A DNA stretch of 64,000 nucleotides from an uncultured Acidobacteriota bacterium (GCA_963813155.1 CAWEYG010000001.1:128001-192000); one strand, 5' to 3'. Shown: positions 14,761-55,716, counted from the stretch's first letter. Made by a program: numbers and translations. Notes: generated from the sequence alone by a model not told the origin.

Positions 14761-14884
14761 CGCCCGAGCGGGTCCTGTCACGGGACTCGATCCACTTTTC
14801 CGCTCGCTGCGATTTTTGGACTTTGCTACGTCTCCGCGCCGCGAGCGGCAAAAGGGATCTCCTCCCGGGCCACCCGCTCGGGCG
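14761..14884 (+). repeat. Structured non-coding element, copy A (long rod hairpin; candidate ncRNA or MITE-like element)
   Basis: 13-bp terminal inverted repeat CGCCCGAGCGGGT/ACCCGCTCGGGCG; homologous to the reverse complement of 55579-55716, with compensatory changes. Confidence 0.85.
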
Positions 14885-14918
14885 AACTCCACCGACTCAC
14901 GTTTGGTAGGATTGAGGC

Positions 14919-16166
14919 ATGATGGTCATTCGGAAACGCCACGAAACCGTCGGGGTGAAGGTTGGCCGCGTGCTGGTCGGCGGTGGCGCGCCAGTCGTCG
15001 TTCAGTCGATGACGAACACCGACACGGCCGACGCGCCCGGGACGGCGCGGCAGTGCGTGGAGCTCGCGCGCGCCGGCTCCGAGCTCGTTCGCGTCACCGT
15101 CAACGTCCCGGAAGCGGCGGCCGCCGTCCCCGAGATCCGGAAACGGATGCTCGACGCCGATTGCGACGCGCCCCTGATCGGGGACTTTCACTACAACGGC
15201 CACGTCCTCCTCGCGAAGTTTCCCGAAATGGCCCGGGCTCTCGACAAGTATCGGATCAATCCGGGCAACGTCGGCAAGGGTCAGAAACGCGACGAGCAGT
15301 TCGCGACGATCTGCCGCATCGCGGCCGAAAACGGGAAACCCGTCCGCATCGGCGTCAATGGCGGCTCCCTGAACCAGGAGCTCGTCATGGACAAGATGCA
15401 GGAGAACACCGACCGCGACCTCGGGCGGTCCTCCGAAGAGATCGTGAACGAATGCATGGTCCTTTCCGCGCTGCAGTCGACCGAGCTCGCAATCGCGAGC
15501 GGCCTGCGCGAAGACCAGATCATCATCTCCTGCAAGGTCTCGCGCCCTCTCGACCTGATCTCCGTGTATCGCGACCTCGCCTCGAGGACCCGGCAGCCTC
15601 TTCACCTCGGACTGACCGAAGCGGGAATGGGGATGAAGGGCATGATCTGGTCGGCCTCGGCAATGGGAGTTCTTCTCAACGAAGGGATTGGCGACACGAT
15701 CCGCGTCTCGCTCACGCCCCGCCCGGCGGGAGACCGCCGCGAGGAAGTGTATGCGGCCTGCGAGCTGCTGCAGGCGCTCGGCATCCGTTCGTTCGCGCCC
15801 AGCGTCACCGCGTGCCCGGGCTGCGGGCGCACGACGTCGACGACGTTCCAGGAGCTCGCGGAGCGGATCCAGGAATACATCCGCGAGAACATGCCGCGAT
15901 GGAAGACCGAGTTCGAGGGCGTCGAAAACATGACGCTCGCCGTGATGGGATGCGTCGTCAACGGCCCCGGCGAGTCGAAGGCCGCGTCGATCGGAATCAG
16001 TCTTCCCGGAACGGGCGAAGAGCCGCGCTGCCCCGTGTACATCGACGGCCAGCACTTCACGACTCTGCAGGGCACCTATGACGAGCTCGCGGAGGGATTC
16101 CGGAAGCTCGTCGACGACTACGTCGCGACGAAATATTCGCGCAAAGCCGTCACGGCGACGCGCTAG
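14919..16166 (+). CDS. ispG: (E)-4-hydroxy-3-methylbut-2-enyl-diphosphate synthase
   Basis: [58 protein letters not shown]. Confidence 0.96.
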
Positions 16167-17241
16167 AAGCCAGCCGGTAGTACTGGCGAATCACGTTAAG
16201 CGCCGGCTTCCCCTGCGGAGTGAAGTCGCGTTCGGCCGACGCGTCCGGCCTTCCCGTCGCCGCGAGGCGCGGGTTCCACTTCCAGACGAACGTCCCCGCG
16301 AACCACGGCCTTCCCCAGATCGTTTCGAAAAACGCCCGATAGGCCTCGGACTGGAGCCGGAAGTCGGACGCGCCGTCGGTCTCCCACTTCCAGGGCTCCT
16401 TGACGCCTCCGGCAACGCTTCGATACCCGATCTCGGTGAACGCGACCGGACGGGCCGTCTTTCGCGAGAGCGGCTCGAGCTCCGCGGAGATCCTGTCCCA
16501 CGAGGCTCTCAACTCGGCCGGCGTCGGTCGCGCGGACGACGACAGGGGGTAATAGGCCTGAATGCCGATGAAGTCGAGCGCATCCCAGAACGGCACGCGG
16601 GCCGCTTCCTCCCAGTTGGCGCAGTACGTGAGCGGGCCGTGATAGACCGCCCGGATCTTCGCGATCAGCTTTCGCCAGTCCGCCGCCCGCGAGCTCGTGC
16701 CGCACAGCTCCGTGCCAACCGCGAGCGCATCCATTTTTTCGTGCTCGGCGAGCTCGGCGTAGTGAAGGATGAATTTTTCATAGGAATCGAACCAGACTTC
16801 CCAGTCCGCTTCGCTGGCCATCTTCAGATCACCCACCCAGTCGCGATGGCCCACCCAGAGATGGGGCTTGAGCAGTGTCTTGATCCCGATCGCGCGCCCG
16901 AGGCGGGCCGTCTCCGCCAGCCCTTCGTCGCTCTCGCCCCAGTAAACGCGCGAGCCGGTTGCGAGGATGACTTCCGGAGACCGAGTCGACCGGCACCATC
17001 CGAACGGTGTCTGCGAGATCCAGTCGACGCCGACTTCTTTCAGTGGCGCCAATTCCCGCGCGCCGATCTTTCCCACGGCCTCCCAGCAGACGCCGCGCAT
17101 TTTCTGGATTTGCCGCGGTTCGTTCCCGCGCACGGCCGCAAGACTGAGTAAGAACGGGAGCGCGATCGCCGCCCCTGAGCAAACCGTCCTCATCATCCGG
17201 CGGCGAGAAACGGCAGCGCCAACCCGGGTCTGCAGGCTCAC
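16150..17241 (-). CDS. Glycoside hydrolase family 113-like secreted TIM-barrel protein
   Basis: [64 protein letters not shown]. Start may be 17196. Confidence 0.8.
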
Positions 17242-19943
17242 GGCCGAATCTCGGAGGTCCAGTTCGACACGACCGAAAGAGGAACGGTCGTGCCCGAAAT
17301 CTCCTGAACGGCTGCCAGGAATCGCCCGTCGGATGCGACGTCAAAGGCCTCCCAGCCCTCCGCCGGAAGCGAGAAGAGAAAGGCTGGCTTTCCGACTTGC
17401 AACGCGGGAGAGACCCGGATCGGCACGGCGTAGAGCTTCCCGTCGGGCGACGCGTAGAAGATCTCCTTCCCGTCGCGATTCCAACGCAGAAGCGTCGCGC
17501 CTCCCGTCGAGATCCGGACTTTTTGCCGGTCGGAGGCCAGGGGTTCGACGTAGGCCTCCGACTGCCCCGACTCGTCGGAGATGAACGCCACGAAACGGTC
17601 ATCGGGGGACAATCGCGCAATTTCCTGTTGGGATTTCGACGTCACGAGGGGCGCCGGCGCCGGATCGCCGACAAGGGAAAGAGTCCACACGCCAAACGTT
17701 CCCCCCGCCGGCCGCTGAGAAAACAGGAGACGCCGTCCATCGCGACTGACGGCCATCGCTTGCTGAAAGCTGCCGGGAGGAAGGAGCGGGGCCTCCGGAC
17801 CGCCGGCGAGTTCCCTCCGAACGAGCTGGGGCGTCTGCCCGTGCCGAACGACGGAATAGACGAGGCTCATTCCGTCCGGAAGCCAGACGGGATCGAATTC
17901 GGTATCGGGCTCCGAGGTCACGCGGGTCTCCACTCCTCGCGCCAGATCGATCGTCCAGATGTCGAAGGTCCCCAGGTCCGGGCGCGTCCGATCGAAGAGG
18001 ACGCTGCGGCCGTCCGGAGAAATCGCGACATTGATCGTGTCGCCGGCTCCCTCCGATCCGATCTTCCCGAGGACTCGGCCGGAACGATCGAACCAGGTCA
18101 GGCGCGAGATGTTCCCCTGCCCCGAGTACGCCAGCATACCGTTGCGCGAGGTCGCAAAGCCGGCCCACTTGTTCGAGTAGAAATAACGGACCGCGGGCGC
18201 AAGCGAGAGCAGCGGCCCGCTCAACCGTCCGGAAGCGGGATCGAAGCGCTGGGCGACGAGACCACCGTCCCGGGCGAAAACCAGGAAACCGGGATCCACA
18301 TATTCGACTCGTGAAGAGAACGGGGCGACGACGCGGGGCGCCTGGCCGCTCGCGGCGAAAATCAAGTTGCTCTCTCCGTCCTTTCGTCCCGCCAGATACA
18401 GGAACGTCTTGCCGTCCGGGAGAAACCATGGCCAGCGCGCTTTCGTTTCTCCGCGGGCCGAATCCGGCCGAACGAGAACCGCCGGCCGCCCCCCGTCGGC
18501 GGAAACGCGATAGATCAGACCGTCGAACGTCGAGTCGAAGAGAATCTCGCCGGCGCCCCACGTCCCGGTGACTCCTCCCCCCAGCCCCCCCGGCAGATCG
18601 CAGATCGGAACGGCAGATCCGCCCGCAAGGTCGATCCGCTTCAACTGGCCGCCCGTGAAAAATCCGATCGACCGGCTGTCGGGCGACCAGAAGATCGACG
18701 AGACCCCCTCGGATCCGGCGAGGGGATGCGCCTCGAGCTCCGAGAGTGTTCGAATCCAGACACGTCGGGAGGGCCGGCTGTTTTCGGCGATCTGGCGCGG
18801 AGATCTGGCCTCGTTGACGACAAAGGCGAGGCGGCATCCATCCGGAGCGAATGCCTGGCTAACCAAATCGAACGTGGACAGAAACTTTCCCCCGGCCGGG
18901 GGAGCGGTCGCGAAACGGATGGTTGGCGGGAAGCTGGAAGACCGTCGATGCTCGATCAGCGCAACCGCCATCGCACCCGCAGCGCCGATCGCCAAGGCCG
19001 CAGCGGTCCACGGCAGGAGACTGCCCCGGTTCTTCCGGCTCGAGGGCCGGTTCGAGGGCTCTGTCGATCCGCCCGTCATTTCCGAAAGGTGCTCGCGCAC
19101 CAGCGCGAGCTCCCGGGAGAGATCCCGGGTCGAGGCGTAACGCCCCTCGGGGGCCTTTGAAAGGCAGCGGTCGAGGATCCAGCCGAGCTGCGGCGGTACC
19201 ACCGGGTTGATCGAGCGAACCGGCGCCGGCTCGTCCCGAAGCACCGCCGCCATCGTCTCCCCGGCCGTCGCGCGCCGGAAGGGCGGCCGGCCCGCCAGCA
19301 TCTCGTAGAGGATCGTGCCGAACGCGAACTGGTCGGACCGGAAGTCCACGCTCCTTCCGCCCGCCTGTTCGGGCGACATGTAGGCGACGGTCCCCATGAC
19401 GATTCCGTCGGAGGTCTTCAGCCCGTCGGAAGTCGGAAGCTGCGACATACCGGCGCTCCCGGTCTCCGCCAGCTTCGCGAGGCCAAAGTCGGCGATCTTT
19501 GCGTCGCCTGTTTTCGTGAGCAGGACGTTTTCGGGCTTCAAGTCCCGGTGAACGATTCCGCTCTCGTGCGCTTCCGCGAGGCCCGACGCGATCTGGACGG
19601 AGAGGTCGAGCGCGCGGCGAAGCGGCAGAGGTCCGCGGTCCAGAAGATCTCGGAGGTTGCCCCCCGCCACGATCTCGGTGACGATGTAGAAACTCTCGCC
19701 CGCGCGGCCGACGTCGAAAACCGACACGACGTGAGCGTGAGACAGCGCGGACGCCGACCGCGCTTCCCTCTCGAACCTCGCCACTCTCTCGGCATCGCCG
19801 GCGAAACCCTCCGGCAGCACCTTGATCGCGACCTCGCGTCCCAGCCGCGTGTCCCTCGCGCGGTACACCTCTCCCATTCCTCCGGCGCCGAGCGACGAGA
19901 GGATTTCGTACGGACCGAGACGGGAGGCGGCCGCGAGGCTCAG
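17238..19943 (-). CDS. Ser/Thr protein kinase + TM + TolB/PD40-like beta-propeller; probable CTG start
   Basis: RLGPYEILSSLGAGGMGEVY, HRDLKPEN, DFGLA, YMSPEQ, then repeated SPDG blades. The frame extends 22 codons upstream of ATG 19877. Confidence 0.88.
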   Translation of the reverse strand: MSLAAASRLGPYEILSSLGAGGMGEVYRARDTRLGREVAIKVLPEGFAGDAERVARFEREARSASALSHAHVVSVFDVGRAGESFYIVTEIVAGGNLRDLLDRGPLPLRRALDLSVQIASGLAEAHESGIVHRDLKPENVLLTKTGDAKIADFGLAKLAETGSAGMSQLPTSDGLKTSDGIVMGTVAYMSPEQAGGRSVDFRSDQFAFGTILYEMLAGRPPFRRATAGETMAAVLRDEPAPVRSINPVVPPQLGWILDRCLSKAPEGRYASTRDLSRELALVREHLSEMTGGSTEPSNRPSSRKNRGSLLPWTAAALAIGAAGAMAVALIEHRRSSSFPPTIRFATAPPAGGKFLSTFDLVSQAFAPDGCRLAFVVNEARSPRQIAENSRPSRRVWIRTLSELEAHPLAGSEGVSSIFWSPDSRSIGFFTGGQLKRIDLAGGSAVPICDLPGGLGGGVTGTWGAGEILFDSTFDGLIYRVSADGGRPAVLVRPDSARGETKARWPWFLPDGKTFLYLAGRKDGESNLIFAASGQAPRVVAPFSSRVEYVDPGFLVFARDGGLVAQRFDPASGRLSGPLLSLAPAVRYFYSNKWAGFATSRNGMLAYSGQGNISRLTWFDRSGRVLGKIGSEGAGDTINVAISPDGRSVLFDRTRPDLGTFDIWTIDLARGVETRVTSEPDTEFDPVWLPDGMSLVYSVVRHGQTPQLVRRELAGGPEAPLLPPGSFQQAMAVSRDGRRLLFSQRPAGGTFGVWTLSLVGDPAPAPLVTSKSQQEIARLSPDDRFVAFISDESGQSEAYVEPLASDRQKVRISTGGATLLRWNRDGKEIFYASPDGKLYAVPIRVSPALQVGKPAFLFSLPAEGWEAFDVASDGRFLAAVQEISGTTVPLSVVSNWTSEIRP

Positions 19944-19986
19944 ATGTTCACCGTTTGCCGGTGATTCTACCCTCCCGGGGGATAAC

Positions 19987-22506
19987 TCATCTCAATCCCG
20001 TCACCAGATAGAGCTCCGAGGCGGAATGAAATCGGGCGTACGCGCAGAAACGACCGTCGGGCGTCAGCTGGACGCTGTCGCTGACCACGGCGCCGCCCTC
20101 CGCCGTGTCGACGAGCTGCATCCAGGGCCCCTTGCGGCCGCTGACGACGTCGAACCGAACGATCTTCGTTCCCTTCACGAGAAAGAGGAATCGTCCAGTC
20201 GAGTCCCACCCCATGGGATTCTCGTCTTCGTCGATCCCCGGAATCGACCGCGCGGCGCCGGTGCCGTCCACCGGGAACAGGTTGAGGACGTGCGGCGGCA
20301 TCCAGGCGGCGACGTGTCTGCCATCCGGAGGAATGCGGGACGCCAGGCCGCCGCCCTCGGGGCTCACGGCGATCGGGGCTCCACCGGAGATCGGCAGCAC
20401 ATAAAGCCGCAGACGTTCCCCCTTCTGCCTTCCCGAGACGACGAGCCGCTTGCCGTCGGGAAGGAAGAGGGCGTACTGGCACATGATGCCGCCCGTATCC
20501 AGGGATTTCGGCTCGCCGGGACCGGTCGGAAGCAGCAGGACGTGGTCGGGAGATATCACCGGGAGAGCGAGCGCCCACTTTCCGTCGGGGGAAAGGTCCT
20601 GGGCGATACCCTCGCCGAGGCGGATGGCCGGCGAGATGCCGTCGGTCGGGCGGATATACACGACGTCGTCCTCGTCGAGGAGCATGATCTTTCCGTCCGG
20701 GGAGAGGGCTTTCGGCATCGAGAAACCGTACCAGGAGAGGTCCCGGGGAGGACCACTGCCGGAAGACTGAAAGATCGCCGAGATGCGGGCGTCCCAGCGC
20801 GCGAGCAGGACGCGCCCGTCCGGCGCGATGTCTTTCACGACGAGGATTCCGGGAGCGCTCGCGACGAGACGCTGCCGGCCGGAGAGAGAGACCGCGTGGA
20901 GCGCCAGGACGCCCGATTTCGGGCCTTCCCGGGCCGTGAACCAGATTTCGTTCCGGACCGGATTCCAGGCCATGCCGATCAGATCGCTCCAGCCGCCGCT
21001 CAGGACCCGCTTGTGGCCAGCCAGGTCGACAACGCACGCGGATGCCGAGCCCGCGCGATCCTCTCGAAAGGCTATGCGATCCCCTCCGGGCAAGAAATGA
21101 ATTTCGTCGACCCGGGCTCCCGGACCGGCGTCATAGAGAACCCTTCCCACCGGAAATTCGATCTTGCCGCCCCGCGAGATCGCGAGCCTCTCGGTGCCGG
21201 GCTGATAGTCCGCGAAAGTCACCTTCTCCGCGATCAGCCGGGGGGCGCCGGCCGCGAGCGACGTCTCCGCCAACGTGTCGGCGTCGGGTCCGATCCCGAT
21301 CGCGACTTTTCCCGAAGGAGAGATCGAGAAGAGCATCGCGGGAGGAAGGGCGAGCGGTGTCGAATCCCTGTCGTTCGTACGCGTCAGGTAGACTTTCGAG
21401 TCTTTTCCGTCCCATGAGGCGCTGTAGAGAATGGTCTGTCCGTCGGGGGCGAATTTGGCGCGGACCACGTCTCCACGGCGAAAAGTGAGCTGCTGATAGA
21501 AGGGAGGCGGCGGCGCGGGGCGAAGAGCGAAGAAGAGCGCCGCAGCCGTCGCGAGGACGGCGACTCCCGCCGTTATCTTGAAGGGCAGGGTCCCGCGCGA
21601 TCGGGCCGGCATCGTTCCAGCCGACGCGGATATCGGTCCCGTTCCCAGGGAAGCCGCTCGAAAGCGGCCGAGATCGTGGGCAAGGTCGCGAGTCGCGGCG
21701 TATCGCTCTCCCGGCTCCTTGGAGAGACAGCGCTCGACGACCCAGACGACCGGCGCGGGCGTCTTCGGGGCGGCCTGCGACAGGGGTTCGGGCTCCTCCC
21801 GGAGGATTGCCGTCATCGTTTCCGCTGCGGTCGTGCGCCGGAAGGGCGAGCGGCCGGCGAGGAGCTCGTAGAGAATCGAACCGAACGCGAACTGGTCCGA
21901 GCGGAAATCCACGACGCGCCCGCTTGCCTGCTCCGGCGACATGTAGCCCACGGTCCCCATGACGACGCCGGCAGAGGTCTGGCGCCCGTCGGAGGTCGGA
22001 AGCTGCGAAATTCCGGGTCCGCTCGATTCGGTCAGCTTCGCGAGACCGAAGTCGGCGATCTTCGCCAATCCGGACCGAGTCAGCAGGATGTTCTCCGGCT
22101 TCAGGTCCCGGTGGACGATTCCCTTCTCGTGCGCAGCCGCGAGCCCCGACGCGATCTGCTCCGCAAGGTCGAGGGCCTTTCGAATGGGGAGAGCTCCGCC
22201 GTCGACGGTGCGCCGCAGGTCCGATCCGTCGACGAGCTCGCATGCGAAATAGTGCAGCCCGCTCTCCGTGCCGACGTCGAAAACCGTGACGATATGAGGA
22301 TCGGAGAGCGCGGAAGCGGCCCGGGCTTCTCCTTCAAAGCGTCGCAGACGTTCCGGGTCTCTCGCGAACTCTTCCGGCAGGACCTTGACGGCCACCTCGC
22401 GTCCGAGCCGGGTGTCCCGGGCTCTGTAGACTTCTCCCATTCCCCCGGCGCCGAGCGGGGCGAGGATCTCGTAGGGGCCGAGGCGAGTGCCGGCCGAGAG
22501 GGACAT
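19987..22506 (-). CDS. Ser/Thr protein kinase + TM + beta-propeller (tandem paralogue)
   Basis: MSLSAGTRLGPYEI, HRDLKPEN, DFGLA, QQLTFRRG, FAPDG/SPDG repeats. Confidence 0.9.
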   Translation of the reverse strand: MSLSAGTRLGPYEILAPLGAGGMGEVYRARDTRLGREVAVKVLPEEFARDPERLRRFEGEARAASALSDPHIVTVFDVGTESGLHYFACELVDGSDLRRTVDGGALPIRKALDLAEQIASGLAAAHEKGIVHRDLKPENILLTRSGLAKIADFGLAKLTESSGPGISQLPTSDGRQTSAGVVMGTVGYMSPEQASGRVVDFRSDQFAFGSILYELLAGRSPFRRTTAAETMTAILREEPEPLSQAAPKTPAPVVWVVERCLSKEPGERYAATRDLAHDLGRFRAASLGTGPISASAGTMPARSRGTLPFKITAGVAVLATAAALFFALRPAPPPPFYQQLTFRRGDVVRAKFAPDGQTILYSASWDGKDSKVYLTRTNDRDSTPLALPPAMLFSISPSGKVAIGIGPDADTLAETSLAAGAPRLIAEKVTFADYQPGTERLAISRGGKIEFPVGRVLYDAGPGARVDEIHFLPGGDRIAFREDRAGSASACVVDLAGHKRVLSGGWSDLIGMAWNPVRNEIWFTAREGPKSGVLALHAVSLSGRQRLVASAPGILVVKDIAPDGRVLLARWDARISAIFQSSGSGPPRDLSWYGFSMPKALSPDGKIMLLDEDDVVYIRPTDGISPAIRLGEGIAQDLSPDGKWALALPVISPDHVLLLPTGPGEPKSLDTGGIMCQYALFLPDGKRLVVSGRQKGERLRLYVLPISGGAPIAVSPEGGGLASRIPPDGRHVAAWMPPHVLNLFPVDGTGAARSIPGIDEDENPMGWDSTGRFLFLVKGTKIVRFDVVSGRKGPWMQLVDTAEGGAVVSDSVQLTPDGRFCAYARFHSASELYLVTGLR

Positions 22507-22533
22507 TCTCCCGAAATGATAGAGGAGACGCCG

Positions 22534-24827: not shown

Positions 24828-24898
24828 GGCCTCCTCCTCCCGGGCATTCTATGTCCTGTCCTTTGTCTTTTGCGGTTCGATCGGGCAGACTCCGGCAG

Positions 24899-26074: not shown

Positions 26075-26080
26075 TCCGCC

Positions 26081-27772: not shown

Positions 27773-27818
27773 GGAAATCCTCCTCCCAAACCCACCAGAA
27801 GACTGCGGCTTTTCATGG

Positions 27819-27847
27819 AGTGTAATGGGAGCGCGTTTTTTCGTCAA
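27819..27847 (-). promoter_or_regulatory. Sigma70-type promoter for the Asp-box protein gene
   Basis: Minus strand TTGACG-17 bp-TACACT, followed by GGAGGAGG before ATG 27772. Confidence 0.65.
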
Positions 27848-42597: not shown

Positions 42598-42601
42598 GTG
42601 C

Positions 42602-44691: not shown

Positions 44692-44715
44692 GCTCCGAGA
44701 TGATACATTTTTTCG

Positions 44716-45977: not shown

Positions 45978-46044
45978 GTTTTCGAGCCTACCATCCCCAT
46001 TGCGCCCGCCTCGGCGCCCGGCGTATCATCCCATTGACAGATCG

Positions 46045-47652: not shown

Positions 47653-47692
47653 TTCCGAATCGAAGCAGCCGCGGCCCCCGCGCGAGGATGAA

Positions 47693-48838
47693 ATGAGCGT
47701 GCTCGCCGTTCTTGTCGGGGCAGCCATCATCGTCCTCGTCCTCTGGGACGCGTTCGAATCGATCGTCCTGCCCCGCCGGGTCACGAGACGATTCCGGCTG
47801 ACCCGCTATTTCTACCGCTCGACGTGGAAGCCCTGGTCCTCGCTGGCGCGCCGGCTGCGGCCAGGCAAGCTGCGCGAGGGCATGCTGAGCGCCTACGGGC
47901 CGCTCTCGCTCCTGCTGCTGCTGGTCGTCTGGGCCGTCGGCCTCACGATCGGCTTCGCGCTGCTGCAGTGGGCCGGTCATTCCCTGGAGGATTCCGCGAA
48001 GCGGGCTTCCTTCGCGACTGACCTCTACATGAGCGGAACGACTTTTTTCACGCTCGGTCTCGGCGACGTGACGCCCCACGGCGCGCGCGCTCGCCTTCTG
48101 ACCGTCCTCGAGGCGGGAACCGGTTTCGGGTTCCTCGCCGTCGTGATCGGCTACCTGCCCGTCATTTACTCGGCATTTTCGCGCCGGGAAACCAACATCA
48201 CGCTTCTCGACGCGCGCGCGGGGTCTCCGCCGTCCGCCCGCGAGCTCCTCAAGCGTTTCGCCCACCCGGACGCCCATCCCTCGATGGCCAGGTTCCTCCG
48301 CGATTGGGAGCTCTGGACCGCGGAGCTGATGGAGAGCCACCTGTCGTATCCCGTTCTCTGTTACTACAGGTCCCAACACGACAATCAATCCTGGCTCGCC
48401 GCTCTGACGACGATTCTCGACGCCTGCTCCTTCGTGACGGCGCACGGGGAGGGCGAAGTGGCGTGGCAGGCGAAAATGACCTTCGCGATCGCGCGCCACG
48501 CCGTCGTTGACCTCTCGCAGGTGCTGATCGCGCCCCCGGGCCCGTGGGTCGAGGACCGCCTTCCGCGCGGAGAGCTCGAGCAGCTGCGCGAAGACCTCCG
48601 GCTGGCGGGAATTCCGTTGTGCACCGAGCCCGAGGGAGCGGAACGACTCCGCGCTTACCAGCGGCTCTACGAGCCGTACGTGCATGCCCTGGCCAACCGC
48701 CTGCTCATCTCGATCCCCGGGTGGTCGCCGGCGGTCGGCAAGGCCCCCAGCGACAACTGGCAGACGAGCGCCTGGGAGAAGCAGTCGAAGGATCGATCCG
48801 GCTCCGCGTCCACTCCGGCCGACGACGAGCACGCATGA
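47693..48838 (+). CDS. Potassium channel family (Ion_trans_2) protein
   Basis: LYMSGTTFFTLGLGD pore motif, FSRRE, ESHLSYP, SWLAAL. Confidence 0.8.
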   Translation: MSVLAVLVGAAIIVLVLWDAFESIVLPRRVTRRFRLTRYFYRSTWKPWSSLARRLRPGKLREGMLSAYGPLSLLLLLVVWAVGLTIGFALLQWAGHSLEDSAKRASFATDLYMSGTTFFTLGLGDVTPHGARARLLTVLEAGTGFGFLAVVIGYLPVIYSAFSRRETNITLLDARAGSPPSARELLKRFAHPDAHPSMARFLRDWELWTAELMESHLSYPVLCYYRSQHDNQSWLAALTTILDACSFVTAHGEGEVAWQAKMTFAIARHAVVDLSQVLIAPPGPWVEDRLPRGELEQLREDLRLAGIPLCTEPEGAERLRAYQRLYEPYVHALANRLLISIPGWSPAVGKAPSDNWQTSAWEKQSKDRSGSASTPADDEHA

Positions 48839-48980
48839 CCTCTCGCCCCGGGCGGGATCGATTTTGACAAGAAAACCGTAACTTTCCGGGGTGCTTCCGG
48901 CGTTTGCCAGTGGGATGCTGCGCACGAACGGGCCGAAAGTCAGGAATCTTCCTCCGCCCCCGGCCGTTTTCGAAGGTCGA

Positions 48981-49859
48981 ATGGCCGAGCTCGCCCGCCG
49001 CCTCCCGGACAACGTCGAAGGAGACTTCTATGTCGACAGCACGTGCATCGACTGCGACGCGTGCCGGCAGATCGCTCCCGCGATTTTCCGCGAAAAAGGC
49101 GGCCGGTCGATCGTCTGCCGCCAGCCGTCCAGCCCGGAGGAAGATCGCCGCGCGATGATGGCTCTCGTCGCGTGCCCGACGGGATCGATCGGGGCTCCCC
49201 GCGAGCGCGACCGCCGGGCCGGCGTGAGCGCCTTCCCCGAGCGCCTCGTCGAAAACGTTTCGTTCTGCGGCTTCACGGCCGAGTCGAGCTTCGGCGCCTG
49301 GAGCTACCTCGTGTCCCGCTCGCCCGCGGACGGGGGAAACGTGCTCGTGGACTCTCCCCGGTTCGCGGCGCCCCTCGTCGCCCGGATCGAGGAAATGGGC
49401 GGCGTCTCGGCGCTCTTTCTCACCCATCGGGACGATGTCGCCGACCACGAGAAATTCGCCCGGCGATTCGGCTGCAAGCGATACCTGCGCGCCTCCGACG
49501 ACGGCGCGCGTTTCGGGGTCGAAGAGGCGTGGAGCGGAGACGATCCGCTTCCGATCGGCGACGACTTCCTGGCGATTCCGACTCCCGGCCACACGCGGGG
49601 GCATGCCGTTCTCCTCTACCGGAACAAGTACCTCTTCACGGGCGATCACCTCGCGTGGTCGCCCTCCCGAAAGCGTCTCACGGCCTTTCGCGGGGCTTGC
49701 TGGTACTCGTGGGAAGAGCAGATCCGGTCGATGCGCCGGCTTCTCGATTTCTCCTTCGAGTGGGTGCTTCCCGGCCACGGCCGGATCCACCACGCCCCCG
49801 CGGGTGAGATGCGCGCTTCGCTCGAAAAATGCATCGAATGGATGGAGAAATCGGCTTGA
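48981..49859 (+). CDS. Ferredoxin-fused MBL-fold metallo-hydrolase
   Basis: CIDCDAC...CPTGSI; THRDDVADH, TPGHTRG, FTGDHL, LPGHG. Confidence 0.87.
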   Translation: MAELARRLPDNVEGDFYVDSTCIDCDACRQIAPAIFREKGGRSIVCRQPSSPEEDRRAMMALVACPTGSIGAPRERDRRAGVSAFPERLVENVSFCGFTAESSFGAWSYLVSRSPADGGNVLVDSPRFAAPLVARIEEMGGVSALFLTHRDDVADHEKFARRFGCKRYLRASDDGARFGVEEAWSGDDPLPIGDDFLAIPTPGHTRGHAVLLYRNKYLFTGDHLAWSPSRKRLTAFRGACWYSWEEQIRSMRRLLDFSFEWVLPGHGRIHHAPAGEMRASLEKCIEWMEKSA

Positions 49860-49879
49860 ACGAAGAAAGGAGATCTCGA

Positions 49880-50765
49880 ATGCACCGAATCGGAATGTTC
49901 GCTCGCGGCCGTCGCCTGCTCGGCGAGCGTTCAGGCGGCCGGGACGCTGAAAGTTCGCGTCGGACCGACGCGAACCTACGGACAGCTGGCCGCGCAGGTC
50001 CGGCAGTCGATGGGCGCAACGCCCGTCCCGTCGAAACGGAGCCGGAACGCGATCGAGTACGACCTCGGGTACAGCGCCCTCCTGCTCCCGGGAGCCGGCA
50101 ACCTGGCGGGGAGCAACGGCACCTACTTCCGCTCGGACGTGATGCTCGTCAACTACCTGAACGTCGACCAGGACGTTGCGCTCACCTGGCTCGCGCAGGG
50201 CGTGGACAACTCGAACGCCCAGGCCCAGATCTACACGCTGACGAAGCAGTCCGTGGTGGCCCTCGACGACTTCGTCGGCCAGACGCTTCAGAAACAGGGA
50301 CTCGGCGCCGTCGCGATCGTGGGCGTCGACAGCTCGGGAAATTACGACGTCAATGCCGACATCGACGCGACTTCGCGAATCTGGACCCCCCAGCCGGGCG
50401 GCGCGGGCACGACTTCGCTTCAGCTGGCGGCCGTCACGACCCCCGATCTCTTCGACAATCCTCCCGGCTACGCGTTCGGGTTGAAGCAAACGGCCGGATT
50501 CCACTCGAACGTGGGGATCGTCAACCTCGACAGTGTCGCCCACACGTTCACCGTCGGCGTGAACGGGCAGAACACCACCGCCTCGTTCAACGTCACCGTC
50601 CCCGCCTTTTCTCTCCAGCAGGTCCCTCTCCCGGACGGCGATTTCGGCGACCTGTGGCTGTCATTCGTGCCCGAGGGAGGGGGATTCGCCTGGAGCGCTT
50701 ACGGGGTGAGCGACGACAACACGACGGGCGACGGATGGGCCTCGCACGCGCATCAGCCCCAGTGA
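49880..50765 (+). CDS. Hypothetical secreted protein, with a +1 frameshift at ~49900 in the signal peptide
   Basis: AAGGAG then ATG 49880; the signal peptide LAAVACSASVQA is in the frame of ORF 50010..50765; LLPGAGNLAGSNGTYFRSD...DNTTGDG. Confidence 0.7.
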
Positions 50766-50789
50766 GGGACCTCTTTCGCGGGCGCGCGG

Positions 50790-52262
50790 CTACAGCAGCG
50801 GCGACATCAGCCGCGCGAGGCCCTGGCCGAGCAGCGCGAAGAAGCCCCGGCCCGAGAGCAGCTTCGGCGTGATTTCCCGGCTGAACTCGAGATCTTCGTA
50901 AAACTGGCGCTCGAGCCGGTCCGCGAAGCCCGGGTCGAAGACGAGCGCGCTGATCTCGAAATTCAGCCAGAAGCTCCGCACGTCGACGTTGGCGGACCCC
51001 ACGAGGCACCACCTCCCGTCGACGACCATCGTCTTGGAATGGAGCATCGAGCGCCGGTATTCGAAGATCCGCACGCCCGCCCGCACGAGGCTCGCGTAGT
51101 ACGAACGGGACGCCGGACCCATCAGCGCAATGTCGTTTTTCTCCGGCAGCAGGACCCGGACGTCGACCCCGCGCAGCGCCGCCGTCACGAGCGCGCGAAC
51201 CGTCGGGCCGTCGGGAATGAAGTACGGGCTCGCGATGAAGCACCGCGACACGGCCGACGTGATTCCCGCGAAATATCCGAGCCGGTTCGCGTTGGCTTCC
51301 TGGTCGGGGCCGCTCGGGAGCACGGCGACGAGGCAGCCGTCCTTCTCCCGGAATTCGGGCTCCGGGACGTCGAGCAGTTCTTCGCTCTCCGTCGCGAATG
51401 ACCAGTCTTCTGCGAACACCTCGCCGAGCTGACCCGCGGCCGGGCCCCTCAGCACGAGCAGCGTGTCGCGCCACGGTCTCTGCTTCACCCGGCCGAACGC
51501 GCCCGAATACTCGTTTCCGATGTTCATGCCGCCCGTCATCGCGAGCTCGCCGTCGACGACGAGGATCTTCCGATGGTTTCGAAGGTGCACGGCCCAGCGC
51601 TTGCGCAGAGGATTGACCGGGAGAAAGACCTCGACGTGCCCGCCGGCGGCCCGGATGGCCCCCAGCGCCGCGGCGTCGATTCCCCACGATCCGACGGCGT
51701 CGTAGAGCAGGCGCACGTCGACCCCCTCGCGGGCTCGTGCGCAGAGGAGCTCGAGGAACTCCTTTCCGGTCCCGTCGTTCTTCACCATGTAGAACTCGGC
51801 CCAGACCGAACGCCGGGCGCCGCGAAGCGCATCCGTGATCCGCCGGGTCGCCTCCGCGTTGTGCGAGATGAGCTCCGCGGAGTTGCCCCCGGCGGCCGGG
51901 ATGTCGGAAAGGCGGCTCGCGAGGCGAACGATCGAGCGCTCGACGGCGGACAGGCGCTCTTCCTCGCCTTCTCGAAGCCCGGAGCTCCCCTGTCCGGGCT
52001 TGTGCCGGCGCAGTTGCCGGGTCGCCGCGCGCTTGGCCCGCCGCGTTCTCGCGACATGGGGATTCGCAAGGAGCAGGTAGGCGATCGGCCCGGCGACGGG
52101 AAACGCGATGATCGCGAAGATCCATGCGAGCGTGCTCGCGAACCCGCGCCCTCGGACGATCGCGAGCACGAGGACCCCCAGAACGACGAGGTCGTAGACG
52201 AAGAGCGCGGGAACCGGGACGCGGGAAAGGAGCGATCCGAGGTGAACGAGCCGGGTCAGCAC
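50790..52262 (-). CDS. cls: Cardiolipin synthase
   Basis: PLDc_N (AWIFAIIAFPVAG) and two HKD motifs (RNHRKILVVD, LHSKTMVVD). Confidence 0.9.
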   Translation of the reverse strand: MLTRLVHLGSLLSRVPVPALFVYDLVVLGVLVLAIVRGRGFASTLAWIFAIIAFPVAGPIAYLLLANPHVARTRRAKRAATRQLRRHKPGQGSSGLREGEEERLSAVERSIVRLASRLSDIPAAGGNSAELISHNAEATRRITDALRGARRSVWAEFYMVKNDGTGKEFLELLCARAREGVDVRLLYDAVGSWGIDAAALGAIRAAGGHVEVFLPVNPLRKRWAVHLRNHRKILVVDGELAMTGGMNIGNEYSGAFGRVKQRPWRDTLLVLRGPAAGQLGEVFAEDWSFATESEELLDVPEPEFREKDGCLVAVLPSGPDQEANANRLGYFAGITSAVSRCFIASPYFIPDGPTVRALVTAALRGVDVRVLLPEKNDIALMGPASRSYYASLVRAGVRIFEYRRSMLHSKTMVVDGRWCLVGSANVDVRSFWLNFEISALVFDPGFADRLERQFYEDLEFSREITPKLLSGRGFFALLGQGLARLMSPLL

Positions 52263-52292
52263 GGAGCCAGCGCCTCGAATAACATTCCCGGC

Positions 52293-52427
52293 GTGCCGGA
52301 AGACCCTCGCGAGCAGCAGGCCCGAAACTCGCCCCGGGCGGTCATGGCGGCCTTTCTCCTGGCCGCGATCGTCTTCGGGGCGGCCGCGCTCTTCGCGTTC
52401 GTTCTCTTTTCCCGCGCCTGCGGGTGA
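52293..52427 (+). CDS. Small (44 aa) single-TM protein
   Basis: GTG lies 7 nt after TAACAT; sequence MPEDPREQQARNSPRAVMAAFLLAAIVFGAAALFAFVLFSRACG. Confidence 0.5.
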   Translation: MPEDPREQQARNSPRAVMAAFLLAAIVFGAAALFAFVLFSRACG

Positions 52428-52492
52428 CGTCGGCTCACGAGCCGGATGTTACACGCCGGAAGCTGGCATTCTCTATGCTATCGAACGACAGG

Positions 52493-53440
52493 ATGGGGAC
52501 AAGCCTTCTCGTTTTCCTCGCCGCGGCGGCGATCGGCGGCGCGGATCGTCCGGCCATCGCCCAGGAGGCCTGCCCCGGCCCGGACGACGGGCAGGTCGTC
52601 GTGGCGGGACTCGACGCGCAGGCCACTCTCCCGCCCGACACGTCCGCCCCTCCCAACGACGCGCCGGAGACCGAGACGCCGCCCAAGCCGCGGCCTTCTC
52701 TGCCGGTTCGCGTCTTTCTCCGCGCCAAGGAGGAAGCGGGACGATACGTCGCCGACGCGGCGGGTCTCGTCCTCGCGCCCGCGAAGTGGGATTCCGGCGA
52801 TTGGAAAACGGCGGCGGGCGCGACGCTCATTCTCGGCGGCCTTTTCGCGGCGGACGAATCCATCGACCGCGCGGCCCAGAGAAACCGGTCGACGTTCACG
52901 AACCATGTCTCGTCGGCGACGACGAGTCTGGGGGGAGGCGAAGGACCCGAGATCTCCGGGCTGCTGCTCGCGGTCGGAATCGTCTTCCACGACCCGAACA
53001 CGCGCGACATGGGGCGCGAAGCGCTCGAGGCCGGGCTCTTCACGAGCCTGCTCAACAACCTCGTTCTGAAAAGAGCGTTCGGCCGCGAGCGGCCATTTCG
53101 GTCCAACGGGGAGACGGATTTCGATGCCGGCACGCGCAACGACTCCTTCCCGTCCGGACACGCGACGGAAGCGTTTTCCGTCGCCTCCGTCGTCGCCATG
53201 CGAGCGCCCGGCTGGATCATCCCCGGCCTCGCGTACGCGGCCGCCACGATCGTGGCGTTCGACCGCGTGAACGACCACGTCCACTTCGCGAGCGACGTCT
53301 TCGCGGGGGCCGTCCTCGGCACGGTCACCGGCCGCTGGCTCGTCGCGCGGCACCGCCGGGAAGAGCAGAAAGGCGCCCCGAAAGCGTCGATCGACATCGT
53401 CCCCATCCGCAACGGCCTCTCCGCGAGGGTTCGCTTCTAG
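52493..53440 (+). CDS. PAP2 family phosphatase
   Basis: KRAFGRERP, SFPSGHA, DRVNDHVHFASDV; signal peptide. Confidence 0.85.
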   Translation: MGTSLLVFLAAAAIGGADRPAIAQEACPGPDDGQVVVAGLDAQATLPPDTSAPPNDAPETETPPKPRPSLPVRVFLRAKEEAGRYVADAAGLVLAPAKWDSGDWKTAAGATLILGGLFAADESIDRAAQRNRSTFTNHVSSATTSLGGGEGPEISGLLLAVGIVFHDPNTRDMGREALEAGLFTSLLNNLVLKRAFGRERPFRSNGETDFDAGTRNDSFPSGHATEAFSVASVVAMRAPGWIIPGLAYAAATIVAFDRVNDHVHFASDVFAGAVLGTVTGRWLVARHRREEQKGAPKASIDIVPIRNGLSARVRF

Positions 53441-53494
53441 ACCGCCTTTCCCCGCGAACGCTTCGATATAATCCCGCCCGGAACGGAGGCTGAC

Positions 53495-55573
53495 ATGAAA
53501 GTCTTCTCGGCGCCCGAGATCCGCAACGTCGCCGTGCTCGGGCACAACACGGTCGGAAAGACGACCCTCGTTTCCGCGATGCTTCACCGGGCGGGTGTCA
53601 CGACGCGCGCGGGCGACATTCATGCCGGAACGTGCGTGACCGATTTCGACGCCGAGGAGATCGACCGAAAGATCTCGATCAATCTCGGCGTCGCGCACGC
53701 GATCCACCGCGACGTCAAAGTGAACTTCCTGGACGCCCCGGGCTACGGAATCTTCGTGTCCGAAGCGAAGTGCGCGGTCGTCGCGGCCGACGCCGTGCTC
53801 CTCGTCATCGACGCCGTCTCGGGCGTGGAGGTCCAGACCGAGAAAGCGTGGAAATTCGCGGAACAGTTCGGCCGGCCGGTCATCTTCGTCGTCAACCGGA
53901 TGGACCGGGAGCGCGCCTCTCTGGAGCGCTGCATCGCGGACCTTCAGAAGAAATTCGGACGCGGGGTCGTCGCGCTCCAGATTCCCGTCGGAGCCGAGAA
54001 GAGCTTCCATGGCACGATCGACCTCGTCCGGATGGAGGCGCACATGCTCGAGGACGGGAAGCGCAAGGACGGCGCCATTCCGGAAGACCACCGCGAGCGC
54101 GCCGAGGCCGAACACAAGAATCTCGTCGAAATGGTCGCCGAAGGGGAAGACGACCTGATGGAAAAGTTCTTCGCGAACGGGACGCTCGAACCCGCCGAGC
54201 TCCTGCCCGGTCTCCGGCGCGAGATCAGCGAGCGAAAAGTCTTCCCGGTCCTGTGCGTGTCGTCCCAGCTCGAGATCGGCGTGCTGCGCGTGCTCGACGC
54301 CTGCGTCGCGCTGTTCCCCTCCCCCGAAGGCGCCCGAGTGACGGCGAAGGACAAGGACGGCAAAGAGCTGGAAATCGCCAATGAAGAGTCCGGTCCGCCG
54401 CTCGCGCAGGTGTTCAAAACGGTCTCCGACCCGTTCTCCGGCCGGCTCACGTATTTCCGGGTTCATTCCGGCGTATTGAAGTCCGACGGAAACTACTGGA
54501 ACTCGACGAAATCCGCGCCGGAACGGTTCACGGGCCTTTTCCTTCCCCAGGGAAAGGAGCACGTCAGCGTGCCGGAGCTCAAGGCCGGCGACATCGGGGC
54601 GGCGGCAAAGTTGAAGGAGACGACGACCGGCGACACCCTCTCCTCCAAGGAGAACCCGCTCGTGCTGCCGCCCCTGACGTTTCCCGAGCCGGCGATCGCG
54701 TTCGCGATCGAGGCGAAGTCGAAGGCCGACGAAGACAAGATTTCCGTTGCCCTTCACAAGCTGATCGAGGAAGACCCCTCGCTGCGATTCGAGCGCGACG
54801 AGCAGACGAAGGAATTCCATCTCTCCGGCGCGGGACAGCTCCACGTCGAGATCGCGGTCGCACGCCTGAAGAAGCGCTACAACGTGGAGGTCATCCTCCA
54901 TCCGCCGAAGGTCCCCTACCGCGAGACGATCACGAAGAAGGCGGAAGCGCACGGCCGCCACAAGAAGCAATCGGGCGGACACGGCCAGTTCGCGGATTGC
55001 CGCATCGAGGTCTCGCCGCTGCCGCGCGGCGCGGATTTCGAGTTCGAAAACGACATCTTCGGGGGTTCGATTCCCCGCAACTACATCCCCGCGGTCGAGA
55101 AGGGCATCCAGGAGGCCCGCCGCCACGGTTTCATCGCCGGCTATCCGATGGTGGACTTCAAGGTCCGCCTGTACGACGGCCAGTACCACGACGTCGACTC
55201 CTCGGAAATGGCGTTCAAGATCGCGGGCGGCCTCGCCTACAAGGAGGCGATGGCGAAGGCGGGCGCGACGCTGCTCGAGCCGATCATGCAGGTGGAGGTC
55301 TACGCTCCCGCGGAGTACATGGGCGACCTGATGGGCGACCTGTCCTCGCGACGCGGGCACGTGCAGGGCCTCGACACCGAGGGAGACCGGCAGACGATTC
55401 GCGCGCTCGTCCCGATGGCGGAGATGCTGACGTACGGGTCGACGCTGCGGTCGATCACGCAGGGACGCGGCGATTTCCACATGGACTATTCCCACTACGC
55501 CGAAGTCCCGCATTCGCTCCGCGAGAAGATCGCCGCGGAATCGGGCAAGAAGCCGGCCGAAGTCGAGGGCTAG
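53495..55573 (+). CDS. Elongation factor G paralogue (EF-G II type)
   Basis: IRNVAVLGH..GKTT, RKISI, DAPGY, KKQSGGHGQF, HDVDSSEMAF, LRSITQGRG; not in a str operon. Confidence 0.9.
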   Translation: MKVFSAPEIRNVAVLGHNTVGKTTLVSAMLHRAGVTTRAGDIHAGTCVTDFDAEEIDRKISINLGVAHAIHRDVKVNFLDAPGYGIFVSEAKCAVVAADAVLLVIDAVSGVEVQTEKAWKFAEQFGRPVIFVVNRMDRERASLERCIADLQKKFGRGVVALQIPVGAEKSFHGTIDLVRMEAHMLEDGKRKDGAIPEDHRERAEAEHKNLVEMVAEGEDDLMEKFFANGTLEPAELLPGLRREISERKVFPVLCVSSQLEIGVLRVLDACVALFPSPEGARVTAKDKDGKELEIANEESGPPLAQVFKTVSDPFSGRLTYFRVHSGVLKSDGNYWNSTKSAPERFTGLFLPQGKEHVSVPELKAGDIGAAAKLKETTTGDTLSSKENPLVLPPLTFPEPAIAFAIEAKSKADEDKISVALHKLIEEDPSLRFERDEQTKEFHLSGAGQLHVEIAVARLKKRYNVEVILHPPKVPYRETITKKAEAHGRHKKQSGGHGQFADCRIEVSPLPRGADFEFENDIFGGSIPRNYIPAVEKGIQEARRHGFIAGYPMVDFKVRLYDGQYHDVDSSEMAFKIAGGLAYKEAMAKAGATLLEPIMQVEVYAPAEYMGDLMGDLSSRRGHVQGLDTEGDRQTIRALVPMAEMLTYGSTLRSITQGRGDFHMDYSHYAEVPHSLREKIAAESGKKPAEVEG

Positions 55574-55578
55574 CAGGA

Positions 55579-55716
55579 GCCTTCGCTTCTCGCGCGGGTG
55601 GCCCGGGGCAAGACCCCTTTTGCCGCTCGCGACGCGGGTGTAGCAAAGTCCTCAGGCTCGCGGCGAGCGGAAAAGAGGGTCGAGCCCCGTGACAGGACCC
55701 GCACGAGAAGCGAGGC
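55579..55716 (-). repeat. Structured non-coding element, copy B
   Basis: Its reverse complement aligns with 14761-14884; the outer stem has a different sequence but still pairs. Confidence 0.85.

Follow-up and report, generated by a model that had tools for sequence, protein, structure and literature searches.

Two long hairpins directly past stop codons

The window analyzed here, a 64,000-nt stretch of DNA from an uncultured Acidobacteriota bacterium, carries two long hairpins, one on each strand. Both had been described in an initial annotation, and both proved real. Copy A starts 3 nt past the TAA stop codon (14755-14757) of an MFS transporter gene, exactly as claimed. Copy B lies between convergent genes, an EF-G paralog (plus strand, ending at 55573) and the gene of a TraF_2-like barrel (minus strand, stop at 55720-55718); in its MFE fold, pairing begins 2 nt past the TGA of the barrel gene, and the perfect outer stem begins 5 nt past it. 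The features of both copies are as follows.

14761-14884, plus strand: copy A, whole hairpin, including a copy-specific 7-bp outer stem (14761-14767 paired with 14878-14884)
14768-14779, plus strand: copy A 5′ foot, the 12-mer GCGGGTCCTGTC, comprising one half of the closing stem and the 6-nt side of an asymmetric internal loop, with TGTC at its end
14818-14829, plus strand: copy A apical-loop motif GGACTTTGCTAC; the opposite strand reads GTAGCAAAGTCC
14869-14877, plus strand: copy A 3′ foot, the 9-mer GCCACCCGC, comprising the 3-nt side of the internal loop and the other half of the closing stem; its complement, GCGGGTGGC, includes GTGG
55584-55712, minus strand: copy B, whole hairpin, including a copy-specific 9-bp outer stem (55712-55704 paired with 55592-55584)
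55691-55702, minus strand: copy B 5′ foot 12-mer, read from the sequence
55640-55651, minus strand: copy B apical-loop motif GGACTTTGCTAC, read from the sequence
55594-55602, minus strand: copy B 3′ foot 9-mer, read from the sequence

The nhmmer matches for copies A and B are C1:142765-142880 (110.6 bits) and C1:183591-183705 (110.8 bits), and copy A also scores 145.4 bits with CM R1. The two share 84% identity over 158 aligned columns, and each folds into one long hairpin (z scores of -9.0 and -9.2) whose stability was equaled in none of 200 shuffles. The compensatory differences noted earlier are indeed present: CGGGA/TCCCG in one copy corresponds to CGGGG/CCCCG in the other, GATCC/GGATC to GACCC/GGGTC, and the outer stems are unlike yet paired. 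Since no T run follows either copy, in agreement with the reported lack of a U-tract, we rejected an intrinsic terminator.

A repeat family in related genera

While the hairpin occurs twice in the window, as had been stated, this does not hold for the genome: across its 3.81 Mb, spread over 13 contigs, nhmmer scored 57 copies at 46 bits or more, 54 of them near full length. The unit is an imperfect palindrome of ∼115 nt with a GC-rich stem of ∼45 bp, conserved bulges and a loop of ∼13 nt. Two congeners harbor dozens of copies each, and a diverged relative is found in all four sister-genus genomes; the order's two other families gave no match to the hairpin family in any of 144 genomes. Within the genome, contig C3 (1.05 Mb) holds 2 copies versus 15.7 expected (Poisson p 2e-5), and copy orientation shows no link with the direction of replication (Fisher p 0.51).

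No two copies are identical. With the best pair at 98.2% identity and a mean of 87%, nothing points to a burst in the very recent past. Identity between genomes equals that within them (0.869 versus 0.869 and 0.880), a pattern that also fits a host function under strong purifying selection. Rfam 15, of which Acido-1 and Acido-Lenti-1 are part, returned nothing in the window at gathering thresholds; in E-value mode up to E 1, it gave only three microRNA-precursor matches, the best scoring 27.3 bits where the threshold is 268. The initial statement that the family is not a recognized one therefore stands.

Pairing is maintained and a strand is favored

In the family alignment, 87.5% of cells are paired, compared with 44 to 52% in slid controls, and double changes occur at 17 pairs versus 9.8 ± 1.1 in shuffles, none of 500 of which reached 17. 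Orthologous copies include double transversions, and the ortholog of copy A in congener G001 differs at two compensated pairs. Compensatory changes thus keep the pairing, and the covariation is real; it does not, however, tell whether the folded molecule is RNA or DNA, be it single-stranded or cruciform.

Across genera, the middle stems are wholly different yet paired, and the two ends and the loop are retained. The 5′ foot 12-mer is nearly invariant in the 52 aligned copies and retained in the sister genus, and the order TGTC, variable stem, GCCA is found in both window copies and nearly all of the 52. The loop 12-mer GGACTTTGCTAC had been called invariant; by eye, it is exact in 34/52 alignment rows, and the sister-genus loop retains GRGGA...GYTAC. 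Also by eye, the GGAC of a suggested GGAC/GTCC pseudoknot is altered in 12/52 rows, none with a compensating GTCC change. Beyond the common unit, copy-specific inverted flanks lengthen the palindrome by a mean of 2.92 nt versus 1.69 ± 0.13 nt when shuffled (0/2000), by at least 5 nt in 13 of 53 copies.

G-U pairs had been taken to favor the orientation as written. This is borne out for the window copies, whose written strand is the more stable (-79.7 versus -75.5 and -95.6 versus -94.0 kcal/mol), but not for the family, in which the opposite strand is more stable in 42/53 copies. The same complement strand is more stable in 96/123 of the cross-phylum hairpins described below, and next to the foot, 78 A.C stand against 11 G.T oppositions. 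The wobble asymmetry favors the strand opposite to the written one, whereas within the family alone, wobble is nearly symmetric (135 G.T versus 146 A.C; 27 versus 48 at 32 core pairs).

Position and orientation of copies relative to genes

Of the 57 copies, 34 have a gene terminating toward the 5′ side of the element, and 37 have one terminating toward its 3′ side. Tandem spacers contain 15 sense and 18 antisense copies (p 0.73), and a stop codon lies within 30 nt of 19 sense and 13 antisense copies (p 0.38). There are 19 copies in convergent spacers compared with 5 in divergent ones (p 0.007). Orientation with respect to neighboring genes is thus random, the very outcome that the initial annotation had named as speaking against a 3′-UTR RNA. 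We therefore rejected that model.

Insertion sites turn over between congeners

For 30 distinct copies in G001, we inspected the orthologous site in the genome of the window (G000). A copy was present at 9 and a 32-nt remnant at 1, whereas 18 lacked the hairpin, with both flanks aligned at ∼82 to 94% identity; 2 were unclear. Of these 18 empty sites, 8 are spacers of 0 to 28 nt; the initial annotation had proposed to look for such sites in related genomes. That only 9/30 sites are shared supports mobility of the family, as judged by comparison of aligned sites. Orthologous copies are 79 to 97% identical, a divergence similar to that of their flanks. Copies at nonorthologous sites in the two species reach 98% identity, with flanking genes at ∼82 to 94%. 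Polarity, that is, gain versus loss, was set by an outgroup at a single site, resting on genome G002; at one empty site examined, again by way of G002, there was no palindrome beforehand.

At "clean" junctions, the inserted DNA brings 6 to 75 nt of extra flank, partly unique, such that the units are ragged-ended rather than precise. This raggedness, together with the lack of target-site duplications at six junctions (L039, L070, L073, L076, L061 and L021), led us to reject a MITE of a DDE transposon. About 25 copies stand alone, ∼18 occur within a second repeat, enclosed by its arms, and 6 to 8 lie beside that repeat. At five orthologous sites, G001 has the hairpin where G000 has the second repeat's own interior, and the same spacers hold different repeat families in sister species. 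In the sister genus, a cluster occupies the same MacB/ABC-permease spacer in 4/4 genomes.

Search for a mobilizing enzyme

No mobilizing enzyme was found among the enzyme families searched. Y1_Tnp (PF01797), a profile described as covering some RAYT subclasses poorly (PMC6006769), had no match in the three genomes of the genus (completeness 90.8, 78 and 99%) or in two further genomes with high copy numbers, of which one is a complete chromosome; a Y1/RAYT match is thus lacking in all five. A tblastn search of G000 with a sister-genus Y1 protein yielded nothing, an HUH...Y..NP regular expression had no match in the six-frame translation, and the sister-genus Y1 loci are without a hairpin copy. 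The genome encodes three or four tyrosine recombinase genes; none of the loci tested has a copy.

The same foot closes hairpins in distant phyla

Newly found here is that the same foot sequences occur on otherwise unrelated hairpins of distant bacterial phyla. Hairpins closed by this 12-mer and 9-mer fall under at least 12 phylum labels. One Latescibacteria genome and one Nitrospirales genome have multiple copies; small CPR genomes have one or two, directly past gene ends. Rfam 15 had no match for the 16 and 9 cross-phylum loci searched.

Comparison with known systems

In integron attC sites, imperfect palindromes of 60 to 140 nt, one strand folds and is recognized by its shape; its closing box is conserved and its tip variable, and there are extrahelical bases and an unpaired central spacer. 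The palindrome, closing box and spacer recur in our hairpins, a likeness in possible mode of action only; attC core motifs (judged by eye), cassette arrays and an integron integrase context are missing. The BIMEs of enterobacteria are mosaic combinations of repeats, similar to the hairpin occurring alone, nested in the second repeat or adjoining it. BIMEs, which are mentioned in PMC6006769, have no sequence relation to the hairpin family, however.

REPs are defined in PMC6006769 by a GTAG or GTGG tetranucleotide 0 to 2 nt 5′ of a GC-rich hairpin, and on the complement of our elements, the stem directly follows the GTGG of GCGGGTGGC. Our family also shares with the REP/REPIN-RAYT system, as portrayed by Bertels and Rainey 2011 (PMC3116915) and Quentin et al. 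2018 (PMC6006769), its dispersed, intergenic and lineage-specific hairpins numbering in the tens, their tendency to lie at gene 3′ ends, their compensated stems and a signal that one particular strand folds. The fully paired basal stem of 7 to 20 nt given in PMC6006769 is matched only loosely, by 5 to 8 bp before the first internal loop. In contrast, we found no counterpart of the cognate single-copy RAYT (PF01797), described as usually repeat-flanked, in the five genomes searched. A REPIN consists of two inverted REPs, whereas here the ends are unlike (12-mer versus 9-mer), with a single GTGG; moreover, our element is one long hairpin with an outer closing stem around the tag and a conserved apical loop, which is free in theirs.

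The CGTC-tagged REPs (Di Nocera, De Gregorio and Rocco 2013, PMC3733652), compared by description rather than by consensus sequence, have a tag that may read TGTC (or CCTC), an unpaired CCA-like tail at the opposite end and, as far as described there, no dedicated transposase. Similarly, TGTC ends our 5′ foot, GCCA opens the 3′ foot, and no transposase was found. According to the same description, however, their units have 8- to 9-bp stems starting with A/T pairs and 4- to 5-nt loops and are mostly head-to-head dimers, whereas ours is a single unit with a ∼45-bp GC-rich bulged stem and ∼13-nt loop, set in a further 6-bp stem.

Discussion

We consider it likely, on balance, that the family represents ∼115-nt noncoding imperfect-palindrome repeats of the REP/BIME/REPIN kind which act at the DNA level and come and go at intergenic sites, for the most part where genes end, whichever way the element points. 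Of the three options offered initially, a non-autonomous hairpin mobilized in trans fits because of the many dispersed copies, quick site turnover and random orientation; a 3′-UTR RNA does not, given the 15 versus 18 copies in tandem spacers and the lack of an Rfam match, and a ribozyme or protein-binding RNA gained no specific support.

The fixed parts, that is, the foot (6-bp closing stem plus 6x3 asymmetric internal loop) and the apical loop, would be recognition sites for a trans-acting protein handling one strand folded as a hairpin, while the long stem between them would need only to pair. The folded strand would probably be the complement of the one written here, placing GTGG at the hairpin foot. 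Classical REPs have GTGG at this position. The mover would not be a recognizable Y1/RAYT, TnpB or IS110 enzyme. Where transcription of a neighboring gene runs through a copy, its RNA is expected to bear a very stable hairpin just past the stop codon. REP hairpins can stabilize or end transcripts, and by analogy, such effects could be an orientation-independent side effect here, not the cause of sequence conservation.

Several observations invite other readings. A DNA site kept by the host, bound by a chromosomal protein or serving as a barrier to forks or transcription, would persist by selection instead of selfish spread; E. coli REP/BIME elements have been reported to be bound by nucleoid protein, gyrase or polymerase. 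The near-identity of nonorthologous copies beside more diverged genes, the fixed MacB/ABC-permease cluster, the missing transposase and the unevenly filled contigs agree with such a role, but the majority of sites differ between congeners, unrelated repeat families take the same spacers, and orthologous copies diverge about like their flanks, making it unlikely. We regard as quite unlikely a strand-specific structured RNA (3′-UTR element, small RNA, ribozyme or protein-binding RNA) with loop and internal loop acting as RNA, perhaps as a tRNA-minihelix-like hairpin with GCCA directly after the variable stem and leader paired with trailer. Significant covariation, unpaired parts conserved in sequence across two genera, the foot across phyla, the strand-specific wobble and the position of the CPR copies would all suit an RNA; yet with random orientation, transcription would yield the wrong strand for about half of the copies if they did not have their own promoters, Rfam is silent even up to E 1, 21/30 orthologous sites are not fully conserved, and the proposed pseudoknot lacks compensation in 12/12 variant rows.

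The wobble signal, fixed closing stem, asymmetric unpaired spacer, conserved bulges and variable stem might equally denote a folded single-strand site of a tyrosine recombinase, as might the cassette-like "module swap" within constant arms at the five orthologous sites and the recombinase genes in the genome. Given that attC core sequences are absent, that copies are dispersed rather than arrayed beside an integrase, that the recombinase loci tested have none and that these enzymes may be merely XerC/XerD and phage integrases, we hold an attC-like site to be very improbable. Finally, replication template switching in quasi-palindromes uses one arm as the template for the other and may lengthen the stem (PMC8794818), which could produce covariation and copy-specific outer stems unselected. 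The extended inverted flanks, the empty site without a pre-existing palindrome and the double transversions are in line with this, whereas fixed ends and loop beside changing stems, and the excess of A.C over G.T, stay unexplained, and we give it hardly any credence; it concerns how pairing is kept, not what the element is, and is compatible with REP-like DNA repeats.

As a local repeat family, these elements are ordinary, REP-like hairpins being common; the foot across phyla is the exception, and of possible weight, since an identical 12-mer and 9-mer occur in at least 12 phylum labels with RAYT matches in 0/5 high-copy genomes. More tentatively, and with more doubt than confidence, the 21 fixed foot bases (GCGGGTCCTGTC ... 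GCCACCCGC) may mark a bacteria-wide, RAYT-independent superfamily of single-strand-folded hairpins from CPR to Acidobacteriota, Nitrospirota, Actinomycetota and Chloroflexota, with tens of copies in unrelated lineages and the window family as one branch; its handler would be a widespread enzyme or universal host machinery reading a "TGTC, stem, GCCA" minihelix. For RNA discovery, the family is a warning that strong covariation and conserved loops can coexist with random orientation to genes. Classical REPs are tied to the RAYT transposase. If true, the superfamily would represent a widespread way to make and spread hairpin repeats without RAYT, and the foot a precise bait for the enzyme.

The window copies belong to a dispersed hairpin family

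The initial annotation had described a structured element occurring twice in the window. Both copies are present at the places it noted, with 84% identity over 158 aligned columns:

Copy A: window 14761-14884 (+); neighbors, an MFS transporter gene (stop codon 14755-14757) and ispG/gcpE (start 14919)
Copy B: window 55584-55712 (-); convergent neighbors, an EF-G paralog (+, end 55573) and a TraF_2-like barrel gene (-, stop codon 55720-55718)

On the strand used in that annotation (the written strand), each folds into one long hairpin, at -79.7 kcal/mol (z -8.98) for copy A and -95.6 kcal/mol (z -9.17) for copy B, with none of 200 shuffles as stable in either case; the complement strands of these two copies are slightly less stable (-75.5 and -94.0 kcal/mol, respectively). 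"Twice" proved far too low a count, since a profile search of the source assembly (G000; 3.81 Mb, 23 contigs, 66% G+C; the window is C1:128001-192000) returned 57 copies scoring 46 bits or more, of which 54 are near full length. Copies A and B are thus real, well-structured members of a dispersed hairpin-repeat family.

With a family query, BLAST found many copies in both other genomes of the genus (G001 and G002, the latter's counts being from an unpublished genome) and none in four sister-genus genomes. A covariance model built on 52 copies matched in all three genus genomes, in two of the four sister-genus genomes and in none of 144 genomes of the order's two other families. With a sister-genus copy as the BLAST query, all four sister-genus genomes gave matches (18, 7, 5, and 7), and a relative of the hairpin is thus present throughout the family-level group. 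In one of these genomes (G004), the relative is a 236-nt tandem repeat (L114:937-1615; 2.9 copies, 96% identity) whose unit comprises hairpin plus spacer, and copy pairs are found at one MacB/ABC-permease spacer shared by the four genomes of the sister genus.

Two features of the source assembly were also noted. Contig C3 (1.05 Mb) holds 2 copies versus 15.7 expected (Poisson p 2e-5); the only place where GC skew was seen to turn, near 320 kb, is also on this contig. Parts of C2 are duplicated on small contigs (C13:2022-5212 resembles C2:275692-278852, and C7 around 14590-15510 resembles C2 around 877090-878000), the C13 and C2 stretches each being ~90% identical to the same G001 stretch; this duplication may reflect strain heterogeneity or a mis-binned relative.

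Copies are oriented at random relative to genes

Using gene calls from a codon model, which place 84% of the genome in 3,331 ORFs, we related all 57 copies to their neighbors.

Position of hairpin copies relative to genes in the source genome
Gene 3′ end toward the element's 5′ side: 34/57
Gene 3′ end toward the element's 3′ side: 37/57
Tandem genes, sense versus antisense: 15 versus 18 (p 0.73)
Stop codon within 30 nt, sense versus antisense: 19 versus 13 (p 0.38); on either side, 27/57
Convergent versus divergent spacers: 19 versus 5 (p 0.007)

Convergent spacers are favored in a genome where the two spacer types are equally common (488 convergent, 483 divergent), and seven copies overlap an ORF predicted by the codon model by >30 nt. 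Copy B, lying between convergent genes, is itself sense to one neighbor and antisense to the other. Nor was there a tie between orientation and GC skew or replication strand (Fisher p 0.51). Location directly after a stop codon, as initially reported, is indeed a common habit of the family but not a one-sided one, being seen in both orientations. Orientation to genes is random, the very outcome that the initial annotation had named beforehand as speaking against its 3′-UTR RNA model, which therefore falls.

Pairing is maintained around a fixed foot and loop

In a 52-copy alignment, 87.5% of cells are paired, compared with 44 to 52% when partners are slid, and double-sided changes occur at 17 pairs versus 9.8 ± 1.1 in shuffles, none of 500 reaching 17. 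The G001 ortholog of copy A (87.9% identity) differs at two compensated pairs; other orthologous copy pairs are 79 to 97% identical. Copy-specific inverted flanks extend the palindrome by a mean of 2.92 nt versus 1.69 ± 0.13 nt in shuffles (0/2,000 reach it), a count in which a few core borders are misplaced by the regular expression. Template switching in quasi-palindromes, described in PMC8794818, could be the source of both the compensations and the flank extensions without RNA-level selection. We also considered that copy-specific outer stems derive from a palindrome already present at the insertion site, and found none at the one empty site examined.

The sister-genus relatives have middle stems of wholly different sequence, with pairing intact, while both ends (5′ and 3′) and the loop motif GRGGA...GYTAC are retained. 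The hairpin therefore comprises two modules constrained in sequence, a foot (the 5′ 12-mer and 3′ 9-mer that close the hairpin) and the apical loop, joined by a spacer that need only pair. Since orientation to transcription is random, we read foot and loop as recognition parts at the DNA level. Within the source genome, wobbles are near symmetric (135 G·T versus 146 A·C in 53 copies), with 27 G·T versus 48 A·C at the 32 core pairs; the complement is the more stable strand in 42/53 copies with RNA parameters and in 47/53 with DNA parameters.

Sites turn over between congeners

We took 30 distinct copies from G001 together with their 1.5-kb flanks and looked for the corresponding sites in the source genome. 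Nine orthologous sites are occupied, one holds a 32-nt remnant, and two are ambiguous; the remaining 18 copies are absent from the source genome with both flanks aligned.

Content of the 18 empty sites in the source genome
Spacer of 0 to 28 nt: 8
Second palindromic repeat with its own interior: 5 (two read base by base)
Third, unrelated palindromic repeat: 3 by BLAST; 1 more by eye
72-nt spacer: 1

The inserted DNA is ragged, consisting of the hairpin plus 6 to 75 nt of other sequence or of a whole 210-nt composite, and no target duplication was seen at the insertion junctions compared. At locus L045, the insertion gives a gene a new stop codon where the G000 ortholog extends to abut its convergent neighbor, which argues for gain over loss at that site. 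For one G000 copy, the site in the unpublished G002 genome consists of two bases between two stop codons, with no palindrome.

Other repeats share these sites:

G000:C5:246636-246790: second palindromic repeat, ~145 nt, ~45-nt arms, 49- to 59-nt interior
G000:C1:54760-54895: third palindromic repeat, ~110 nt, ~20 copies
G000:C2:256028-256144 (L299:1529-1645): single-copy foot-variant hairpin, 117 nt, different interior

According to a flank comparison of the 57 copies, ~25 are solo, ~18 are nested in the ~45-nt arms of the second repeat, and 6 to 8 adjoin it. The second repeat has ~40 full-length copies of its own; the hairpin stands in place of its interior in ~18 copies, and at 5 sites with G001 orthologs. 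The third repeat, with arms CTCTCCC/GGGAGAG and GGGGTGAGGGG/CCCCTCACCC, fills three to four G000 spacers that hold the hairpin in G001. The foot variant has its first base pair swapped (CCGGGT.../...ACCCGG) and no Rfam match, and a similar hairpin adjoins a family copy in G001 (L032, ~1340-1500). Separately, GTGGGTCCTGT occurs four times within 740 nt (G000:C6:179231-179969), followed by C in three cases and T in one, and may represent a further cluster of foot-bearing repeats.

The foot recurs in other phyla

A scan for the 12-mer, 78 to 108 free bases, and the 9-mer, with each species represented by one genome, located the foot at at least 122 loci, against a non-negligible chance expectation in GC-rich DNA (roughly, tens of matches in 596 Gb); the cross-phylum claim is carried by hairpin statistics rather than by match count. 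The first base pairs with the last in the folds of 114/125 instances, and at least seven of the eight bases directly inside the foot are paired in 63/125, versus 4.7% after halves were exchanged among instances; a few instances are clear chance matches inside genes. Among the 80 matches listed, record titles label the carriers as Nitrospirota, Acidobacteriota (several classes), Actinomycetota, Chloroflexota, Latescibacterota, Krumholzibacteriia, four CPR groups, Elusimicrobiota, Omnitrophota, Rokubacteria, Verrucomicrobiota, and one delta-proteobacterial MAG, and one record is a cultured Solirubrobacter. A Latescibacteria chromosome carries the 12-mer 73 times and a Nitrospirales MAG 24 times (reversed controls, 0 and 1, respectively), in elements of 56 to 115 nt with differing interiors.

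The complement is more stable in 96 of 123 distinct cross-phylum instances, and the ten positions beside the foot show 78 A·C versus 11 G·T oppositions (p ~1e-13), or 40 versus 9 without one recurrent position (p ~9e-6). Because A·C on the written strand is a G·T wobble on the complement, the complement is most likely the strand that folds.

A near-identical 127-nt foot hairpin is found in MAGs labeled as two different phyla (Chloroflexota MAGs L148, L159, L168, L181, and L197; Candidatus Udaeobacter MAG L220), which points to horizontal transfer or mis-binning. A distant blastn search of a plasmid collection gave no match. In viral contigs, each length class gave a single exact foot match, one of which, inside a 685-aa open frame, is probably chance.

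A REP-like family without a RAYT match

Neither the hairpin family nor the cross-phylum foot-hairpin loci matched any Rfam family. The foot does share a 9-mer with one known RNA:

G000:C5:205576-205675 (L300:1501-1600), minus strand: SRP RNA gene (RF00169, 71 bits)

Here, GGGTCCTGTG lies near the 5′ end, with similar 5′ strands in SRP RNAs from four other phyla. Composition alone predicts ~48 occurrences of the 9-mer, and 31 were counted outside the family, so we did not take the match as evidence of kinship; it is probably chance. Literature searches returned only unrelated oligonucleotides for the foot and, for REPs in Acidobacteria or Nitrospira, no description of this hairpin family.

Membership among MITEs, attC sites, terminators, or Rfam families failed on the features tested, leaving REPs as the closest comparison. 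By the definition in PMC6006769, a REP has GTAG or GTGG 0 to 2 nt before a GC-rich hairpin, and the complement of our family indeed carries GTGG at the hairpin foot; however, the defining partner, a RAYT gene (REP-associated Y1 transposase, PF01797), was sought and not found in five high-copy genomes (three genus genomes, the Latescibacteria chromosome, and the Nitrospirales MAG). The CGTC-tagged REPs, as described in PMC3733652, sometimes have a TGTC tag, with a CCA-like tail at the other end and no transposase, all of which our family shares, but they differ from it in having short stems that start with A/T pairs, small loops, and a dimeric habit. Matching both descriptions in part, the family is filed here as REP-like, outside either REP superfamily.

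The transposase search gave no match to PF07282, and the tyrosine recombinase loci tested held no hairpin copy. A single IS110 gene was rejected as the mover, being absent from both congeners and present in four copies in an element-poor sister-genus genome. No recombinase lies beside sister-genus clusters or low-copy foot hairpins, whose neighboring genes serve housekeeping roles (transporters, ribonucleotide reductase, transketolase, and formamidase).

We consider an RNA gene unlikely; non-autonomous mobile DNA, read in the form of a single folded strand, is the best explanation of the family, whose foot, shared across phyla without a RAYT match, is the part worth following up.
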